30,122 nucleotides of DNA, from the IMG/VR virus record IMGVR_UViG_2690316345_000022; one strand, given 5' to 3'. Positions 3,589 to 30,122 of this stretch are shown piece after piece; within the stretch, counting starts at the first letter, position 1, and the number at the start of each line of letters is the position of its first letter. The notes under the pieces were generated by a model. It worked only from the letters and a program-made list of their open reading frames with translations. It searched no databases and was not told where the DNA came from. Both the position numbers and the translations under genes were made by a program. Origin of the DNA: a virus. Lineage: Duplodnaviria; Heunggongvirae; Uroviricota; Caudoviricetes.

Positions 3589-4626
3589 ATGGCTGTAAAA
3601 GTTGTTGATCTTTTTTGTGGTGCTGGCGGTCTTACACATGGCCTAAGACAGGCCGGATTAAATGTAGTCGCTGGTATTGATATAGAGAGTGCATGCAGGG
3701 TTGCTTATGAAAGCAATAATAGTGCGCTTTTTATTGAAAAAGATATTTCTCTGGTAACCAAAGACGAGCTTGAAGGTCTATTTGAAGGGGCACAAGTTAA
3801 GGTATTGGCGGGATGTGCACCGTGCCAACCCTTTTCTAGGTATACGCAGGGGCGTGATAAGAAAAATGACAAAAAATGGCCTCTTCTTTACGAATTTGAA
3901 CGTTTAATTCGGGATGTTAATCCAGAGATTGTGACAATGGAAAATGTTCCTGATGTGACGAAGCATTCAGTTTACAGTGATTTCTATAATAGCTTAGAGT
4001 CATTAGGCTATTATGTTTGGGCAGGGACAGTTGAATGTGTAGATTATGGCATTCCACAAAATAGAGTAAGGCATGTATTATTAGCATCTAAATTTGCACC
4101 ACTTTCCTTTGTAAGACCAAAAGTACAAAAAACGGTAACGGTGAAAGAATGCATTGGTGGATTACCTCCATTAGAGGCAGGCCAGACGGATCCAGTTGAC
4201 CCTTTACATAAAGCAAGTAAATTAAGTGACATTAATCTTAAACGTATTGCTTGTTCAAAGCCTGGTGGAACGTGGCGAGATTGGCCGATAGAGTTGGTTG
4301 CGTCATGCCATATAAAGAAAAGTGGGCAAGGTTATGCCAGTGTCTATGGTCGTATGGACTGGGATAAACCAAGTCCTACCATCACCACGCTGTGTTATGG
4401 TTTTGGGAATGGCAGATTTGGCCACCCAGAGCAGAATCGTGCAATTTCTTTGAGAGAGGCAGCCCTGTTACAAACCTTTCCAAGTGATTACATTTTTACT
4501 GCACCTAATGAGAAGATCTCTGTGAAGAACGTTGGCAGGATGATCGGTAATGCCGTGCCGGTAAAATTAGGGAAGGTTATAGGTGAGTCAATTATAACCC
4601 ACCTAAAAGAGAATAATATAATTTAA
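3589..4626 (+). CDS. DNA (cytosine-5)-methyltransferase
   Basis: 345 aa with canonical C5-MTase motifs: I DLFCGAGG, IV GCAPCQPFS (catalytic Cys), VI ENVPDV, VIII QNRVR, X GNAVPVKLG. Target specificity unknown. Confidence 0.9.
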   Translation: MAVKVVDLFCGAGGLTHGLRQAGLNVVAGIDIESACRVAYESNNSALFIEKDISLVTKDELEGLFEGAQVKVLAGCAPCQPFSRYTQGRDKKNDKKWPLLYEFERLIRDVNPEIVTMENVPDVTKHSVYSDFYNSLESLGYYVWAGTVECVDYGIPQNRVRHVLLASKFAPLSFVRPKVQKTVTVKECIGGLPPLEAGQTDPVDPLHKASKLSDINLKRIACSKPGGTWRDWPIELVASCHIKKSGQGYASVYGRMDWDKPSPTITTLCYGFGNGRFGHPEQNRAISLREAALLQTFPSDYIFTAPNEKISVKNVGRMIGNAVPVKLGKVIGESIITHLKENNII

Positions 4627-5354
4627 GCCTGTAAACTTGATGATCGTATGTATAAGCGATCATCAAGATATTTTTGTATATTTTCTAGGATTTCTTCGAG
4701 GTAATAAAACACTTCATTTTTAAGAAGTTCAAGATTATCAATGGAAGTATCTTGGCCCTTGTTCAGAAAGGATTCTGAGCCATGCGCTAAAGCATTTCTG
4801 GCATTTTTTATATTTACTAAATTTCCACCATTATGAGTTTTTAAGCGATTTGTTTGAGAGGAAAATCCATATATATTAGCTACATCTCTAATTTTCTGTG
4901 CATCTACATTTCCAGAAAAAAGAGGGTTTTTATCTGCTTTGACTTGTTTTTTATGCTCCTCTAACCATTTTTTTAATACTAGTTTTGCAACATCGCCTTG
5001 TGAAAAATCCATGTCACTAACCATATGATGATCTAATTTTTTTAAGGCAAGTTTTGTTAAGCTTTCACATATCTTATCAATGCAAAGATCATTACATGAA
5101 TTGAGTTCGTCATGTATATCTTCAATAGCATTAGATATAGTGGCTTCTATTAGGTTATACAATATAATAAACGCATTTGCTTTAAGTATATGCGTCATTT
5201 CGATATCAATGTTACGAAGTTTGTACTCATCAGAATCACGATCTTTATAAGAGAATGATGGCCTCTCATCAATAATGAATTTAACAAAATCAAAATATTT
5301 TTCTATATCTTCTTTTCTTTCAGAGAATAATATTTTGCTGTTCATGGTGACCAC
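4623..5354 (-). CDS. HEPN-like domain protein (predicted nuclease), downstream partner of the DUF262 gene
   Basis: 243-aa ORF; predicted GTG start 6 nt after the DUF262 stop with GAGGAG RBS overlapping that stop; C-terminal ARNALAHG matches the HEPN Rx4-6H motif; very AT-rich. Confidence 0.6.
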   Translation of the reverse strand: MVTMNSKILFSERKEDIEKYFDFVKFIIDERPSFSYKDRDSDEYKLRNIDIEMTHILKANAFIILYNLIEATISNAIEDIHDELNSCNDLCIDKICESLTKLALKKLDHHMVSDMDFSQGDVAKLVLKKWLEEHKKQVKADKNPLFSGNVDAQKIRDVANIYGFSSQTNRLKTHNGGNLVNIKNARNALAHGSESFLNKGQDTSIDNLELLKNEVFYYLEEILENIQKYLDDRLYIRSSSLQA

Positions 5355-5360
5355 GGATAA

Positions 5361-6485
5361 TTACTCCTCACTGTCATCTTGAACAGTATCTTGAGTCTGT
5401 ACACCTAAAAGTTTATCTCTTACATATTCAATTCGTGCTTTAACTTTAGGTTTTGAGTTCGAGGCATCAGATCTAGTATGTTTAATGAACTCTACAGAGT
5501 TAAGCCATTCAGTTACTGGGGCTGGTGTTATGCTTGGATTAGTTTGTAAGGCTAAAGTTGAACCAACAGCCAGTGCTTCAAAACGTATTCTTGGTACAGT
5601 ATTTGCCGTTTCGTTTTTTCTGAAACCATAGGGGAAATTCTGTTTTACAAATCTGCACATATCTTGAAATTGTTTAGCTAATTTGTTTTCTTGTTCAGCG
5701 GAAAATGTATTATTTCTATTATCAAGATATTGAGTTAGGAATGTGTCAACACTTTTTTCAAAGTGGAGATAGTTATCACAATATGCGAAATATCTAAGAA
5801 CTAATTCAGGATATTCTCCTCGATTGATTCGAGCATCGTTTAGGGGACATATTTCTCTAAACAATGGAAGTTCAGACAGACTATTAATGAAATCCAGGAA
5901 AGGACCATCATTGCTGCCTTGTCGCTGCTCCATTGTTGTAAGTCTTATTCCGCCTGTATTTAATCTATCGAAAATCTCTCTCCTTGCTTCTTCATCACAT
6001 AATTCAGTGAGTTCAATCATTCTAATAGTTTTCCTGTCGAATCTAAGCTTACGCGCAGGTGTGAAGTCAGAGTATTTGAATCCGTTAGCTGAAGTTAGTT
6101 TTTTTAATCCAGTAAGAGTAAATTTATCATTTAGGAAATGATAAAGTGTTCTAATCCTCTGGCTGCCATCAACGATTTCCAATCGTCCATCGTCATTTCC
6201 GATATCGGCGACAAATACATATGGAATAGGAATGTTTAGTAAAAGCGATTCAATGAATCTTGATTTTTGTATATTGTTCCAAACAAACTCCCTTTGATAG
6301 TCAGGAATATATAGCTCAGCTTGATCGGTTTCTAATCCTTTCTGAAACTTGTCAACAATAACACTAACAGGAAATTCTCTGATTTGGTGATCGGTTATTT
6401 TTTGCATGGATTTGATCTGGCTATCCAGTTCAATTTTATCTTCTTCTGTGATCACTTGTTCAGGCTGTCTTGGGACTCTTGCCAT
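5361..6485 (-). CDS. DUF262 / ParB-like (GmrSD N-terminal-type) domain protein
   Basis: ORF 5361..6512; likely ATG at 6485 (MARVPRQPEQ...) preceded by AAGGAG RBS; contains IVDGSQRIRTL, a variant of the DGQQR motif of DUF262; no obvious DUF1524/HNH motif seen by eye. Confidence 0.75.
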   Translation of the reverse strand: MARVPRQPEQVITEEDKIELDSQIKSMQKITDHQIREFPVSVIVDKFQKGLETDQAELYIPDYQREFVWNNIQKSRFIESLLLNIPIPYVFVADIGNDDGRLEIVDGSQRIRTLYHFLNDKFTLTGLKKLTSANGFKYSDFTPARKLRFDRKTIRMIELTELCDEEARREIFDRLNTGGIRLTTMEQRQGSNDGPFLDFINSLSELPLFREICPLNDARINRGEYPELVLRYFAYCDNYLHFEKSVDTFLTQYLDNRNNTFSAEQENKLAKQFQDMCRFVKQNFPYGFRKNETANTVPRIRFEALAVGSTLALQTNPSITPAPVTEWLNSVEFIKHTRSDASNSKPKVKARIEYVRDKLLGVQTQDTVQDDSEE

Positions 6486-6628
6486 GTGGTTTCTCCTTAT
6501 GCTTATTTGCAATAAGTTGCATTAGTTTGCATGTGTAATTTTATACTGATTTAATCCCACAAACTCTTTACATGCAAGGGGTTGAAGCTTAAATGCAACT
6601 GCATTAAAACCGTCCCATGAAGCGGGCG

Positions 6629-18496: not shown

Positions 18497-20707
18497 ATGA
18501 GCACAAAATTCAGAACCGTTATCACCACTGCCGGTGCAGCAAAGCTGGCAGCGGCAACCGCACCGGGAGGGCGGAAGGTCAACATTACCACGATGGCCGT
18601 CGGGGATGGCGGTGGTAAATTGCCTGTCCCGGATGCCGGACAGACCGGGCTTATCCACGAAGTCTGGCGACATACGCTGAACAAAATCAGCCAGGACAAA
18701 CGAAACAGTAATTATATTATCGCAGAGCTGGTTATTCCGCCGGAGGTGGGCGGTTTCTGGATGCGTGAGCTTGGCCTGTACGATGATGCGGGAACATTAA
18801 TTGCCGTGGCGAACATGGCCGAAAGTTATAAGCCAGCTCTCGCCGAAGGCTCAGGGCGTTCGCAGACCTGTCGCATGGTCATCATCGTCAGCAGTGTGGC
18901 CTCAGTGGAGCTGACCATTGACACCACAACAGTGATGGCGACGCAGGATTACGTTGATGACAAAATTGCAGAGCACGAACAGTCACGACGTCACCCGGAC
19001 GCCTCGCTGACCGCCAAAGGTTTTACTCAGTTAAGCAGTGCGACCAACAGCACGTCTGAAACACTGGCCGCAACGCCGAAAGCGGTAAAGGCCGCGTATG
19101 ACCTTGCTAACGGGAAATATACTGCGCAGGATGCCACCACAGCGCGAAAAGGTCTTGTCCAGCTCAGTAGTGCCACCAACAGCACGTCTGAAACGCTCGC
19201 TGCAACACCAAAAGCGGTAAAAGCAGCATATGACCTGGCTAACGGGAAATATACCGCACAGGACGCCACCACCGCGCGAAAAGGCCTTGTCCAGCTAAGT
19301 AGCGTCACCAACAGCGATTCTGAAACGCTTGCGGCAACGCCAAAGGCGGTTAAGACAGCGTATGACCTTGCTAACGGGAAATACACTGCACAGGATGCCA
19401 CCACAGCGCGAAAAGGGCTTGTCCAGCTCAGTAGCGCCACCAACAGTGATTCTGAAACCCTCGCGGCAACGCCAAAAGCAGTGAAGTCTGCCTATGACAA
19501 TGCTGAAAAACGTCTTCAGAAAGATCAGAACGGTGCGGATATTCCGGGAAAGGATACCTTCACGAAAAATATCGGTGCCTGTCGTGCTTATAGCGGCGCT
19601 TTGAGCACTGAAGCCGGAAACTGGACAACCGCTCAGTTTATTGACTGGCTAGAGTCTCAGGGAGCCTTTAATCATCCTTACTGGATGTGCAAGTGTTCCT
19701 GGTCATATGGTAATAACAAAATTATTACCGATACTGACTGTGGGACTATTCATCTTGCAGGTTGCGTGATTGAGGTTATGGGCGTTAAAGCAGCAATGAC
19801 CATTCGTGTGACCACTCCGAGTACATCAAGCGGTGGTGGTACCACCAGTGCGCAATTCACGTATATCAATCACGGAGCTGATTATGCGCCGGGCTGGCGA
19901 CGTGACTACAATACGAAAAATAAGCAACCGGCTTTTGCATTAGGGAAAACAGGAAATACGGTTGCAAATAATAAAGCGGTAGGATGGAACTGGGACAGTG
20001 GTGCTTATTGTGCACAGGATGGCGGAGCATCAAAAATGGTGCTGCATTTTTACACGGGTGAGGGAAGTTGTCCGGCAATGCAGTTTCTTGTGGATTATAA
20101 AAACAGGGGGATTTTTTACAGGTCGGCACGTGATGGGTATGGATTTGAGGCTGACTGGTCAGAGTTTTATACCACATCACGAAAGCCAACACCTGCGGAT
20201 ATTCTTGCTCTGGCATTATCAGGCGGAAGCATGTCAGGCAGCATAAAATTTATCAATGATGCCTTCCTGATTTGGGAAAGAAACACTGACTGGGCGAAAA
20301 TTGGATTTAAAAATGATTCAGATGCTGATTCTGACTCATACATGTGGTTTGAAACTGGTGATAATGGCAATGAATATTTTAAATGGCGCATCAGGTCTGG
20401 CAGCACAACAAAAGACCTGATGACGCTTAAGTCTGATGCACTTCGGGTTACCGGGCAGGTGATACCATCAAATTTCAGCAATTTTGACTCCCGCTATGTC
20501 CGGGATATCCGGCTTGGTGGTGCCGCCACATACAAACCTGCGAACAATGGCATGACATGGACACATCAGGCACCGTCCGGGTGTGTATATACCGGCATTA
20601 TTGTTCAGGATACCGGCTCAAACTCTGCCGATAACATTGGTGGCGTATATTACAGACCGGTTCAGAAATACATTAACGGGACGTGGTACAACGTGGCGCA
20701 GGTATAA
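18497..20707 (+). CDS. H: Tail fibre protein gpH (repeat-expanded, divergent C-terminal receptor-binding region)
   Basis: 736 aa; conserved N-terminal region, internal tandem repeats, divergent C-terminal half. Confidence 0.9.
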   Translation: MSTKFRTVITTAGAAKLAAATAPGGRKVNITTMAVGDGGGKLPVPDAGQTGLIHEVWRHTLNKISQDKRNSNYIIAELVIPPEVGGFWMRELGLYDDAGTLIAVANMAESYKPALAEGSGRSQTCRMVIIVSSVASVELTIDTTTVMATQDYVDDKIAEHEQSRRHPDASLTAKGFTQLSSATNSTSETLAATPKAVKAAYDLANGKYTAQDATTARKGLVQLSSATNSTSETLAATPKAVKAAYDLANGKYTAQDATTARKGLVQLSSVTNSDSETLAATPKAVKTAYDLANGKYTAQDATTARKGLVQLSSATNSDSETLAATPKAVKSAYDNAEKRLQKDQNGADIPGKDTFTKNIGACRAYSGALSTEAGNWTTAQFIDWLESQGAFNHPYWMCKCSWSYGNNKIITDTDCGTIHLAGCVIEVMGVKAAMTIRVTTPSTSSGGGTTSAQFTYINHGADYAPGWRRDYNTKNKQPAFALGKTGNTVANNKAVGWNWDSGAYCAQDGGASKMVLHFYTGEGSCPAMQFLVDYKNRGIFYRSARDGYGFEADWSEFYTTSRKPTPADILALALSGGSMSGSIKFINDAFLIWERNTDWAKIGFKNDSDADSDSYMWFETGDNGNEYFKWRIRSGSTTKDLMTLKSDALRVTGQVIPSNFSNFDSRYVRDIRLGGAATYKPANNGMTWTHQAPSGCVYTGIIVQDTGSNSADNIGGVYYRPVQKYINGTWYNVAQV
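19013..19500 (+). repeat. Tandem 132-bp (44-codon) coding repeats inside tail-fibre gene H, about 3.7 copies
   Basis: Protein repeat ARKGLVQLSS(A/V)TNS(T/D)SETLAATPKAVK(A/T/S)AYDLANGKYTAQDATT recurs with period 132 nt (e.g. gcgcgaaaagg at about 19145, 19277 and 19409). Confidence 0.85.
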
Positions 20708-20710
20708 TTT

Positions 20711-21238
20711 ATGCAGCATTTGATAAATATAACGGCAGGTAATCCAAAAACGGTTGAACAATATCAATTGACAAAGGACTTTGATGTTGTCTGGTTTTTT
20801 TCAGAAGATGGTAAGAACTGGTACGAAGAACAAAAGTATTTTGCTGATGACACGATAAAAATAGCGTACGACAAAGATAATATTATCCGCTATGTGGAAA
20901 AGGATGTGACAGCTATCAGACCAGATGGATTAAGTGTTGTTGAAGTGCCGGATATTACTGCTAATCGACGGGCGGACATTTCAGGGAACTGGATGTTTAA
21001 GGATGGTACAGTGATTAAACGAATTTATACGGCAGAGGAATTGCAGCAGCAGGCAGAAAATCGGAAAGCCAGACTTCTTGCAGATGCTGAATCCGTGATT
21101 TTGCCGCTGGAGCGCGCGGTCAGACTGAACATGGCAACAGATGAGGAGCGTAGCCGACTGGAAGCATGGGAACGCTACAGCGTTCTGGTCAGTCGTGTGG
21201 ATCCTGCAAATCCTGAATGGCCGGAAATGCCGCAATAA
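20711..21238 (+). CDS. G: Tail fibre assembly chaperone gpG
   Basis: 175 aa directly after H; position as P2 gpG. Confidence 0.85.
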
Positions 21239-21459
21239 GTTGTATGATCTCTGGAGTGAGCAAACGTATCTATGGCACAGAGTAAAGCCTAATCTGACAG
21301 GCCGCTCTGTGTCTGGAGTAGATTTTAGTAAAGCATTATTTTATTAGTGCAAATTCTAATCAATACATTTTATGTATATGATATCCTGCAGACTTTAATG
21401 ACTTGGTTTAGGCTAACCAGATAACACTGAAGGAATATTTTTGATAATTAAGGTACGGT

Positions 21460-22053
21460 ATGTTTACTAAGCGACGATTAAAAAATATTAACTGGGAGGC
21501 AAGTTCAGTGATTCTTGCTATGGTTCTCTTTGTTGGAAATATATTTTATACAAATCATCGTGATGATATAAGCATGGAGGCTGAGAGGGACAGTATCAGA
21601 ACAATGTTTGCATATGAAATCGCTAATAACCATCGCGCTCTCACTTTTCTTGATAAAACGAGACATATTGGCTTTGACGAAAATTCGGAGCATTTTGTTG
21701 GCGAGCCTTTTGCCATTAATGTCAAATCATTAGGGGGGCCTCGCTTACAGATTGCATTAAACCAGACTGATAAAGTGTTTAAATCCTACTTCAGCGAATT
21801 AAGTAAGCTTGATAAAGAGGATGTTACTCTTCTTATGGACTATTACCATGAGCAAAGCATCCTGCTGGAGCGTGTAAAATCTACGTTACAGAAGATGAAA
21901 AGTGGTAATGATATTAAAGTTGATATTGATGGTTACTTATTAGAAGAACACTTCATGAATGAGCTTAATCTTTCTAATATTTTGCTTAAACGCTATAGCC
22001 ATTTGTTGTCACAATACGCTAAAGAACATAAAACAAAAGATTTACATAATTGA
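21460..22053 (+). CDS. Hypothetical membrane-anchored protein in the G-FI accessory slot (P2 Z/fun position)
   Basis: 197-aa ORF in an AT-rich island; N-terminus MFTKRRLKNINWEASSVILAMVLFVGNIFY is a basic stretch followed by a hydrophobic helix; AAGG RBS upstream; no recognisable catalytic motifs. Confidence 0.6.
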   Translation: MFTKRRLKNINWEASSVILAMVLFVGNIFYTNHRDDISMEAERDSIRTMFAYEIANNHRALTFLDKTRHIGFDENSEHFVGEPFAINVKSLGGPRLQIALNQTDKVFKSYFSELSKLDKEDVTLLMDYYHEQSILLERVKSTLQKMKSGNDIKVDIDGYLLEEHFMNELNLSNILLKRYSHLLSQYAKEHKTKDLHN

Positions 22054-22382
22054 TAATCTGCTAATGGTTATTCATGGGGTAACTATGTTTTATATGTAAT
22101 CCAACTCAGATGAATTATTGATTCTGGATAATAACCGCAGAGCGGCATATACCCTGACAGGCAAATGTCCGCTTCTTGTTCAAAGCAGACTGTCAGATTT
22201 GATAACTTTTGGGCTATGTAAATTGTCAGTCGGAAAATGAGTGAGTTCAAATCAGGACTGGCGGGCGAATTGCCCGCATTTTCTTTATCTGTTGTTTCAT
22301 CCACTGACCAACCAGGTCAAATAGCGTCTCATGCACTGCCCAACAGAAAATAGTTGCACCCATTAACCACGGAGTTAAACGG

Positions 22383-23573
22383 ATGAGTGACTATCATCAC
22401 GGCGTGCAGGTGCTGGAGATTAACGACGGCACCCGCGTCATTTCCACCGTATCCACTGCCATTGTCGGCATGGTCTGCACGGCCAGCGATGCGGATGCGG
22501 AAACCTTCCCCCTCAATAAACCTGTGCTGATTACCAATGTGCAGAGCGCAATTGCAAAGGCCGGTAAAAAAGGCACGCTGGCGGCATCGTTGCAGGCCAT
22601 CGCTGACCAGTCAAAACCGGTCACCGTTGTCGTGCGCGTGGAAGACGGCAGCGGCGACGACGAGGAAACGAAACTCGCGCAGACCGTTTCCAATATCATC
22701 GGCACCACCGACGAAAACGGTCAGTACACCGGACTGAAAGCCCTGCTGGCGGCGGAGTCGGTAACCGGTGTTAAACCGCGCATTCTCGGTGTGCCGGGAC
22801 TGGACACCAAAGAGGTTGCCGTCGCACTGGCATCAGTCTGTCAGAAGCTGCGCGCTTTCGGGTATATCAGCGCATGGGGCTGTAAAACCATTTCCGAGGT
22901 GAAAGCCTACCGCCAGAATTTCAGCCAGCGTGAGCTGATGGTCATCTGGCCGGATTTCCTCGCATGGGATACGGTCACCAGTACCACCGCCACCGCGTAT
23001 GCCACCGCCCGTGCGCTGGGTCTGCGCGCTAAAATCGACCAGGAGCAGGGCTGGCATAAAACGCTGTCCAATGTCGGGGTGAACGGTGTTACCGGCATCA
23101 GCGCCTCTGTATTCTGGGATTTGCAGGAGTCCGGCACTGATGCTGACCTGCTTAACGAGTCAGGCGTCACAACGCTGATTCGCCGTGACGGTTTCCGCTT
23201 CTGGGGTAACCGTACCTGCTCTGATGACCCGCTGTTCCTCTTTGAAAACTACACCCGCACCGCGCAGGTGCTGGCCGATACGATGGCTGAGGCGCACATG
23301 TGGGCGGTGGACAAGCCCATCACCGCAACGCTGATTCGCGACATCGTTGACGGCATCAATGCCAAATTCCGAGAGCTGAAAACAAACGGCTATATCGTGG
23401 ATGCGACCTGCTGGTTCAGCGAAGAATCCAACGATGCGGAAACCCTCAAGGCCGGAAAACTGTATATCGACTACGACTATACACCGGTGCCTCCTCTTGA
23501 AAACCTGACCCTGCGCCAGCGTATTACCGATAAATACCTGGCAAATCTGGTCACTTCGGTTAACAGCAATTAA
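22383..23573 (+). CDS. FI: Contractile tail sheath protein gpFI
   Basis: 396 aa; length and position as in P2. Confidence 0.93.
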   Translation: MSDYHHGVQVLEINDGTRVISTVSTAIVGMVCTASDADAETFPLNKPVLITNVQSAIAKAGKKGTLAASLQAIADQSKPVTVVVRVEDGSGDDEETKLAQTVSNIIGTTDENGQYTGLKALLAAESVTGVKPRILGVPGLDTKEVAVALASVCQKLRAFGYISAWGCKTISEVKAYRQNFSQRELMVIWPDFLAWDTVTSTTATAYATARALGLRAKIDQEQGWHKTLSNVGVNGVTGISASVFWDLQESGTDADLLNESGVTTLIRRDGFRFWGNRTCSDDPLFLFENYTRTAQVLADTMAEAHMWAVDKPITATLIRDIVDGINAKFRELKTNGYIVDATCWFSEESNDAETLKAGKLYIDYDYTPVPPLENLTLRQRITDKYLANLVTSVNSN

Positions 23574-29138: not shown

Positions 29139-29219
29139 ATCCTCAATTTGCCTGCTGCTTAATGCATTGCAGATGATTTGCTTCCGTTATACTAGCGTCA
29201 GTTGATAGCGGGAGTATTT

Positions 29220-30122
29220 ATGAATCAATCTTATGGACGGCTGGTCAGTCGGGCGGCGATTGCTGCGACGGCGATGGCTTCGCTGCTATTGCTGATTAAA
29301 ATTTTTGCATGGTGGTATACCGGGTCGGTGAGTATTCTCGCCGCGCTGGTGGATTCGCTGGTGGATATCGGCGCGTCGTTGACGAATTTATTGGTGGTGC
29401 GATATTCCCTGCAACCTGCCGACGATAATCACTCGTTTGGTCACGGTAAAGCTGAGTCCCTCGCGGCGCTGGCGCAAAGTATGTTTATCTCCGGTTCGGC
29501 ACTATTCCTGTTTTTGACGGGTATTCAACATCTGATATCTCCAACACCGATGACAGATCCAGGCGTCGGGGTTATCGTGACAATTGTGGCGCTAATTTGT
29601 ACGATTATCCTTGTCTCGTTTCAGCGTTGGGTGGTGCGGCGGACGCAAAGCCAGGCGGTGCGGGCTGATATGCTACATTACCAGTCTGATGTTATGATGA
29701 ACGGCGCAATTCTGCTGGCGCTGGGGTTGTCCTGGTACGGCTGGCATCGCGCCGATGCTCTGTTTGCATTGGGAATCGGCATCTATATTTTATATAGCGC
29801 GTTACGCATGGGATATGAGGCGGTACAGTCATTACTGGATCGCGCATTGCCTGATGAGGAACGGCAAGAAATTATTGATATCGTGACTTCCTGGCCGGGT
29901 GTTAGCGGCGCTCACGATCTTCGCACGCGGCAGTCAGGGCCGACCCGCTTTATTCAGATTCATTTGGAAATGGAAGACTCTCTGCCTTTGGTTCAGGCAC
30001 ATATGGTGGCGGATCAGGTAGAGCAGGCTATTTTACGGCGTTTTCCGGGATCGGATGTAATTATCCATCAGGACCCCTGTTCCGTCGTACCCAGGGAGGG
30101 TAAACGGTCTATGCTTTCATAA
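29220..30122 (+). CDS. fieF: Cation diffusion facilitator family ferrous-iron/zinc efflux transporter FieF (YiiP), host chromosomal gene
   Basis: ORF 29202..30122; ATG at 29220 gives 300 aa [53 protein letters not shown]..., matching E. coli FieF from memory; six TM helices plus C-terminal cytoplasmic domain. Confidence 0.93.

Follow-up and report, generated by a model that had tools for sequence, protein, structure and literature searches.

Layout of the G–FI interval

The window, by which we mean the whole stretch of 30,122 nucleotides that was analysed, carries a P2-like (Peduovirus) prophage, and a host cation-efflux (fieF-like) gene at 29202-30122, following the last phage genes, denotes its right end. 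The tail-fibre assembly gene G and the tail-sheath gene FI are separated by 1144 bp, and the genes in and around this interval are arranged as follows:

18497-20707, tail-fibre gene H
20711-21238, tail-fibre assembly gene G (Caudo_TAP match), with its stop at 21238
21312-22163, plus strand, variable AT-rich cassette of ~850 bp that fills the G–FI (Z/fun) slot, delineated by low GC content and by the match limits of other phages
21460-22053, plus strand, gene for a 197-aa protein (PHROG 3829; RefSeq 'lysogenic conversion protein'), supported by dN/dS, a conserved start and the family match
22383-23573, tail-sheath gene FI (Phage_sheath domain matches), with its start at 22383

The 197-aa frame is the sole sizeable ORF between the G stop and the FI start, and the GC content amounts to 0.32-0.41 over 21150-22350 as opposed to 0.55-0.59 in FI and the later genes. 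A first-pass annotation of this DNA had described an AT-rich island with a single 197-aa ORF between G and FI, and both the ORF list and the GC profile bear this out. The limits of the cassette are placed at ~21312 and ~22163 because other P2-like phages match the window solely outside them. Further upstream, in G and the part of H that encodes its C-terminal half (19500-21238), the GC content is already down to 0.37-0.50. The assignment of the slot to the variable Z/fun hotspot of P2-like phages likewise holds, in agreement with the alignment to P2 and with published descriptions in which Z/fun is a documented P2 hotspot (PMC9519451; bioRxiv 10.1101/2024.10.15.618418; PMC13586616).

The main P2 hotspot of the same prophage, located between gpA and the portal gene Q, is occupied by three genes within 3589-6512:

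3589-4626, plus strand, C5 cytosine DNA methylase
4623-5354, minus strand, HEPN MAE_28990-like protein
5361-6512, minus strand, GmrSD_N/DUF262 protein, matching PADLOC NsnA and PD-T4-2_A

This three-gene cargo appears to be of a known defence type.

Repeats, terminator and late promoter flanking the cassette

The ~330 bp before FI had initially been regarded as holding only a weak 73-aa antisense ORF. The ORF is present, but the sequence is not otherwise empty: it includes a repeat, a terminator and the pF promoter, the positions of which were set by alignment with the annotated records of P2 (AF063097) and of the P2-EC31 Z-region (AJ512677). The flanking features are:

21211-21323, no strand assigned, Z-region left inverted repeat, from alignment with the 'left inverted repeat' of AJ512677
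22054-22166, plus strand, 3' untranslated flank of the cassette (~110 bp), which travels with the gene in non-P2 elements
22083-22304, minus strand, 73-aa antisense ORF, not a gene, overlying the right repeat, the terminator and the activator site
22167-22257, no strand assigned, Z-region right inverted repeat, aligned with the 'Right inverted repeat' of AJ512677 and with P2
22259-22288, plus strand, intrinsic terminator GCGGGCGAATTGCCCGC followed by a T run (stem 22261-22277), found by a terminator scan and kept in P2 and P2-EC31
22290-22359, plus strand, pF late promoter from the activator (Ogr-type) binding site to the start of the F operon, transferred from AF063097 at 89% identity
22290-22315, pF activator-binding site, by alignment
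~22357-22359, transcription start of the F operon, by alignment

The repeats of the Z-region were reportedly described by Nilsson et al. in 2004. In the window the left repeat overlaps the final 28 bp of G; the sequence common to P2-like phages with other cargo stops at ~21311-21327, and flank-only matches in 81 other phage records span 21239 to ~21311. The right repeat is kept in P2-like phages regardless of their cargo, and a motif search located within it a palindromic core, TCCGCT-N10-AGCAGA, at 22168-22189. The core of the inverted repeat I1 at 21291-21309 pairs with 22181-22199. Nucleotide homology to the copies of the gene in Pantoea and Enterobacter extends to ~22196. The flanking hairpins were also considered as stable structures in the window and this was rejected, as they have decayed (z about 0); they are stable in the plasmid copy and in the right copy of P2-EC31. 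A search for RNA families in the non-coding parts of the interval found none.

The terminator directly before pF would end both the transcripts of the cassette gene and any read-through from the V-W-J-I-H-G operon. No exact TGT-N12-ACA activator site was found ahead of FI; the site of pF is imperfect (TGT-N12-CCA) in the window as it is in P2, and was located by alignment. The antisense frame is also open in P2 and P2-EC31, with other ends and with frame-shifting indels, and most of its substitutions relative to these two phages alter the amino acid. For these reasons we reject it as a gene, and the conservation of the region appears to operate at the level of the DNA, that is of the repeat, the terminator and the promoter. 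The record of PhiR44_1 annotates a 38-aa CDS over this region.

The cassette gene and its upstream region

Compared to orthologues from a Pantoea island and an Enterobacter plasmid (67-68% identity), the gene has a dN/dS of 0.14, which shows that it is real and under purifying selection. Its start position is kept in both, as GTG in Pantoea and TTG in Enterobacter, and the arrangement of TTTTTGATAATTAAGG, 6 nucleotides and the start codon is conserved in both elements. The following upstream features can be distinguished:

21352-21459, plus strand, conserved 5' region of the gene, with blocks common to the Pantoea island and Enterobacter plasmid copies
21352-21387, first conserved block
21438-21453, second conserved block, TTTTTGATAATTAAGG, including a -10-like GATAAT at 21443-21448
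21450-21453, Shine-Dalgarno sequence AAGG

On this sequence evidence, 21352-21459 is a candidate for a promoter of the gene's own together with its ribosome-binding site. The stretch 21421-21448 is promoter-like, but such sites occur no more often in this region than in shuffled sequence. The terminator scan identified no terminator-like site between G and the ORF, and late transcripts of the tail-fibre operon should therefore run through the gene up to the terminator at 22261.

The records of SIDE7 and AC1 (L014 1770-2315 and L015 1770-2315, respectively) begin the gene at the codon of V17, giving a protein of 181 aa; a version of this length also makes up a cluster of 149 members (P0002). 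This shorter version cuts the hydrophobic helix described below and loses half of the transmembrane segment. The 197-aa form is favoured because its start and the sequence upstream of it are conserved in other elements.

A predicted membrane-anchored four-helix bundle

Searches of Pfam and NCBIfam with the 197-aa protein returned no match, and a sequence search of the PDB nothing meaningful. The comparison with defence databases proposed in the first-pass annotation gave no support either, since none of the 5027 models of PADLOC-DB v2.0.0 matched the protein at E values up to 10. The statement that the protein has no recognisable motifs is thus correct for Pfam, NCBIfam and PADLOC, but PHROG 3829, a family labelled 'unknown function', matches it over its full length (residues 1-197 of 197, E 7.1e-137). 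RefSeq and phage copies share 94-99% identity with it (the WP_097756061-like cluster). The name 'lysogenic conversion protein' in RefSeq appears to derive from the positional Z-region label 'putative lysogenic conversion protein'. The family is small: clustering at 90% identity yields 38 clusters, and a set of 1.8 billion proteins contributes 28 representatives at 50% identity. Wherever the source names an organism it belongs to the Enterobacterales. No functional study came up in a literature search that covered the identifiers of the family and its carrier phages.

Two segments of the protein are discernible:

21493-21552, plus strand, transmembrane helix, residues 12-31, the most conserved part of the protein
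21553-22014, plus strand, four-helix bundle, residues 32-185, predicted to be periplasmic

The structure model (pLDDT 83) portrays an N-terminal transmembrane helix that continues into the first helix of a generic four-helix bundle. The N-terminal signal-anchor helix anticipated in the first-pass annotation is thereby corroborated as a predicted topology, by the model together with the charge bias; the structure prediction it had called for was obtained, but a generic bundle says nothing on function. The hydrophobic segment itself covers residues 14-30 (ASSVILAMVLFVGNIFY) and is moderate, with a Kyte-Doolittle 19-residue maximum of 1.54. Across the family it is flanked by a net positive charge on its N-terminal side and a net negative charge on its C-terminal side. 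For this marginally hydrophobic segment the charge bias speaks for an N-terminus in the cytoplasm and a bundle in the periplasm. In three distant members a C-x4-C pair lies at the C-terminal end, a weak hint that they may form a periplasmic disulphide loop.

Among 21 sequences N11, W12, E13, A14, S16, V17, A20, M21 and F24 are invariant, and the mean pairwise identity is 0.81 in the transmembrane helix versus 0.63-0.76 in the other folded segments. Being the most conserved segment, the helix is likely to be more than a passive anchor, which suggests specific contacts within the membrane. In the bundle, R47, N57 and L117 do not vary throughout the wider family, and E53 hardly does.

The bundle invites comparison with the periplasmic sensor bundles of chemoreceptors and histidine kinases (Tar, Tsr, PcaY, PilJ; 4HB_MCP), to which the protein has no Pfam match. 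Unlike the 4HB_MCP sensors it possesses no second transmembrane helix, HAMP or signalling domain and ends directly after the bundle; the likeness is considered generic because de novo designed bundles score higher.

Distribution and mobility of the cassette

Thirteen phage records match the entire island at 97% identity or more, among them P24B2, P24E6b, P22H1, PhiR44_1, D8, 12W, SIDE7 and AC1, and so do 201 of 5426 complete E. coli genomes (3.7%). The same 201 genomes correspond to ~20% of the 1015 complete E. coli genomes that match the conserved flanks. One of the matches, in NZ_CP090319.1 (hit H46), is split into two pieces with an IS1 transposase annotated under the island, which shows that it is open to disruption. 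The 29 copies in IMG/VR with 93% identity or more all reside in the G–FI slot. The adjoining H alleles range from 37 to 99% in identity and the G alleles from 71 to 100%, and because these neighbours vary so widely the cassette is not tied to one receptor type. The same variation implies that the receptor-binding module, which shares one variable region with the cassette, is exchanged independently of it. The family is rare outside the P2-like prophages of E. coli, given that a scan of species-representative genomes revealed two loci only and a plasmid collection one convincing copy only.

A palindromic element, TCYGCT-N10-AGCRGA, flanks the gene on the Enterobacter IncFII plasmid and, in a decayed form, in the Pantoea island. 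In P2-EC31 the element borders a 362-aa cargo gene that is unrelated. Chance would provide ~0.15 matches per 30 kb. The window contains copies at 21291-21325 and 22164-22199, of which the right one is intact and the left one degenerate, and other records hold them at 5785-5806 and 6607-6628 (L005) and at 93-114 and 1617-1638 (L002). Nucleotide homology between phage and non-phage copies stops inside these elements, which, judged by sequence, look like recombination sites for cassette exchange.

The distribution bears directly on the question of whether the gene might serve the phage itself, as an accessory of its life cycle such as a tail-fibre or spanin-like lysis helper produced late together with the tail-fibre operon. 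The gene has the same orientation as G without a terminator-like site in between, and the modelled topology of an N-terminal transmembrane helix followed by a helical periplasmic domain resembles that of i-spanins. However, ~80% of the P2-like prophages do without it, many different H and G alleles are found next to it, and copies are known from a satellite, a plasmid, a tra region and chromosomal islands that have no tail or lysis genes. The resemblance to i-spanins (Rz/LysB-like) goes no further, as the ORFs within and beside the gene have no lipobox and thus offer no embedded or adjacent lipoprotein partner, the gene is not part of the lysis region, and the model shows a compact bundle rather than an extended coiled coil. 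We regard a role in the phage life cycle as very unlikely.

Genomic contexts of distant homologues

None of the homologues of 69% identity or less is situated in the G–FI slot. The Pantoea homologue resides in an AlpA-type island and the Enterobacter homologue on an IncFII plasmid. One further copy shares a plasmid-like contig with genes for a resolvase and ParB, another follows the primase gene of a Kosakonia P4-like satellite, and a third lies inside a tra region, where it adjoins a PDC-M14A-like gene. The position behind the primase corresponds to a minor hotspot of P4 satellites (PMC13586616). In another P2-like phage the gene follows the portal gene and a KAP NTPase (PDC-S49), i.e. at the portal-side hotspot. 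Elsewhere it adjoins a Lamassu LmuA/LmuB pair, a putAbiC protein (in Proteus mirabilis), or lies directly after a TIR gene, matching PADLOC PDC-S66 and ThsB, beside an integrase. In every context examined the gene is solitary and without a conserved partner.

Six distant homologues were compared with PADLOC-DB at E values up to 0.1 and gave no meaningful match; that of P0054 to a Cas8b model (E 0.006) was taken as chance. A dedicated role as a TIR effector was considered and rejected, since the association is limited to one locus type, the TIR protein there matches the single-gene candidate family PDC-S66, and no relationship exists between the 197-aa family and the transmembrane proteins in the TIR system of AC1.

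The repeated placement in defence hotspots and next to defence genes points to a role in the competition between mobile elements. The designation of the gene as a candidate for exclusion or defence stands as far as location and neighbours are concerned, but it finds no backing in homology to known defence or exclusion proteins. Our searches detected neither sequence nor fold likeness to any of these.

One form that such a role could take is that of an abortive-infection effector, which would sense infection and, by oligomerisation of its transmembrane helix, depolarise or permeabilise the inner membrane and kill the cell before phage release. Homologues adjoin TIR, Lamassu, KAP-NTPase and AbiC-like genes and occupy hotspots where abortive systems are common, which speaks for it, and so do the polar and small residues (N11, E13, S15, S16, G26, N27) within the best-conserved helix; transmembrane proteins of known systems are, moreover, generally considered to be suicide effectors (PMC9122126). 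Against it, the charge bias sets the large domain in the periplasm, far from cytoplasmic phage cues, there is just a single hydrophobic segment of modest hydrophobicity, and no conserved partner could act as the sensor. In addition, PADLOC including its candidate families holds no match, and the transmembrane proteins of the AC1 TIR system are unrelated. We therefore judge this improbable, although by no means as improbable as a role in the phage life cycle.

Lysogens, hotspot cargo and a possible role in lysogenic conversion

AC1 and SIDE7 carry the gene at 95% and 98.5% identity, respectively, and both were among the four P2-like phages whose E. coli C lysogens were studied by Rousset et al. 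(2022; PMC9122126). The lysogens were challenged with lambda, T4, P1, 186cIts, CLB_P2, LF82_P8, AL505_P2 and T7, T5 being outside the panel. The only lysogen reported to be protective was that of AC1, which resisted lambda and LF82_P8; the TIR system of this phage, which is separate from the gene, reproduced the protection when cloned (PMC9122126). As indirect evidence, the AC1 and SIDE7 lysogens thus provide no protection attributable to the gene against this eight-phage panel, which does not include T5. Nor did the gene turn up in the selection that Vassallo et al. carried out with T4, lambda-vir and T7, a screen that was not exhaustive.

These observations bring into view a lysogenic-conversion or fitness factor that acts apart from phages, either as an immunity protein against periplasmic toxins (bacteriocin, type VI) or as an envelope modifier (LPS/O-antigen, stress signalling). 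Membrane-anchored periplasmic proteins are typical immunity proteins, which counts in its favour, as do the absence of phage protection attributable to the gene in the two lysogens and the RefSeq name, even if that label is positional. The hotspots of P2 are known to accommodate non-defence cargo as well, namely cytolethal distending toxin and partition genes. Yet no cognate toxin or envelope-modifying gene is linked to the family in the contexts examined, where the direct neighbours are repeatedly defence or candidate-defence genes. The one Rhs toxin locus near the Pantoea copy starts ~3.5 kb downstream of it, with immunity and toxin-domain genes that belong to the locus itself. A function of this kind is in our estimate unlikely, though slightly less so than an abortive effector.

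Comparison with known systems

The prototype occupant of the slot is Fun(Z) of P2 (AAD03288), a non-essential cargo gene that is annotated as blocking T5 when cloned. It shares with the 197-aa gene the same G–FI slot, the conserved flanks, the terminator and the pF promoter. In contrast to the 197-aa protein, Fun(Z) comprises 528 aa, is encoded on the opposite strand and is itself without a Pfam domain. Homology between the two was rejected (best BLASTP E 3.3, over 19 residues). Other cargo of P2 hotspots, including old, tin, the PD-T4/PD-lambda systems, DprA-PRTase and the AC1 TIR system, is comparable in that it occupies the same kind of hotspot and is subject to the same rapid swapping of cassettes. 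The AC1 TIR system includes proteins with two and one transmembrane segments (2TM and 1TM) that are unrelated to the family, as the family HMM scored at most -1.1 bits against the four AC1 hotspot proteins.

A further comparison is with the classical exclusion proteins. The lactococcal Sie2009, T4 Sp and Imm, and HK97 gp15 are small products of prophage or phage accessory genes in which a membrane anchor at the N-terminus precedes an extracytoplasmic domain; each works alone and against a narrow spectrum. The 197-aa protein would resemble them if it adopts the modelled transmembrane helix and bundle in the N-in/C-out orientation that the charge bias suggests. Whereas classical exclusion proteins mostly stay in phages, members of this family are also carried by a plasmid, a tra region and satellites.

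A tentative model of action

The best explanation of the island is that of a self-contained accessory ('moron') cassette encoding a single autonomous inner-membrane protein. Of the conceivable mechanisms, a block at the envelope that keeps phage genomes from entering is the most plausible, because the domain is predicted to be periplasmic, the spectrum is narrow or undetected and the membrane helix is conserved. We put forward superinfection exclusion of this narrow type as a tentative proposal that stands at rather less than an even chance, with location and context constituting the support for defence.

According to this model the short basic N-terminus would lie in the cytoplasm, the transmembrane helix would span the inner membrane and the four-helix bundle would project into the periplasm. 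The protein would be expressed in the lysogen from its own promoter and, late in infection, additionally by read-through from the tail-fibre operon. Acting at the envelope, it could halt the genome entry of a narrow set of competing phages, and its target might be either the ejection or tape-measure apparatus of the incoming phage or a host inner-membrane protein that those phages need, with the conserved transmembrane helix perhaps supplying an intramembrane contact. The outcome would be superinfection exclusion akin to that of Sie2009, T4 Sp/Imm and HK97 gp15, brought about by an unrelated protein. The negative result with the eight phages in the AC1 and SIDE7 lysogens fits a narrow spectrum.

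The slot as such is already known as a hotspot, and the uncharacterised part is the protein family. The 197-aa protein is possibly, with the balance of probability still tilted against it, the founding member of an uncharacterised single-gene family of envelope-acting exclusion proteins directed against phages or other mobile elements, built from a transmembrane anchor and a periplasmic four-helix bundle. Such a family would have spread as a repeat-bounded cassette among the P2-like phages, P4-like satellites, plasmids and islands of the Enterobacterales, the palindromic TCYGCT-N10-AGCRGA cores serving as swap sites for the tail-gene slot of P2.

Implications

Should no phage phenotype emerge, the gene would be a reminder that location in a hotspot does not by itself establish a function in defence. 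The repeats, which flank this and unrelated cargo alike, could help to explain how cassettes are exchanged at the hotspot. If the block to genome entry proves true, a common envelope-level resistance determinant that PADLOC-DB v2.0.0 misses would be added to the defence repertoire of E. coli, with relevance to the prediction of phage host range and to phage therapy, and the protein would make a compact subject for studying how phage DNA passes across the inner membrane.
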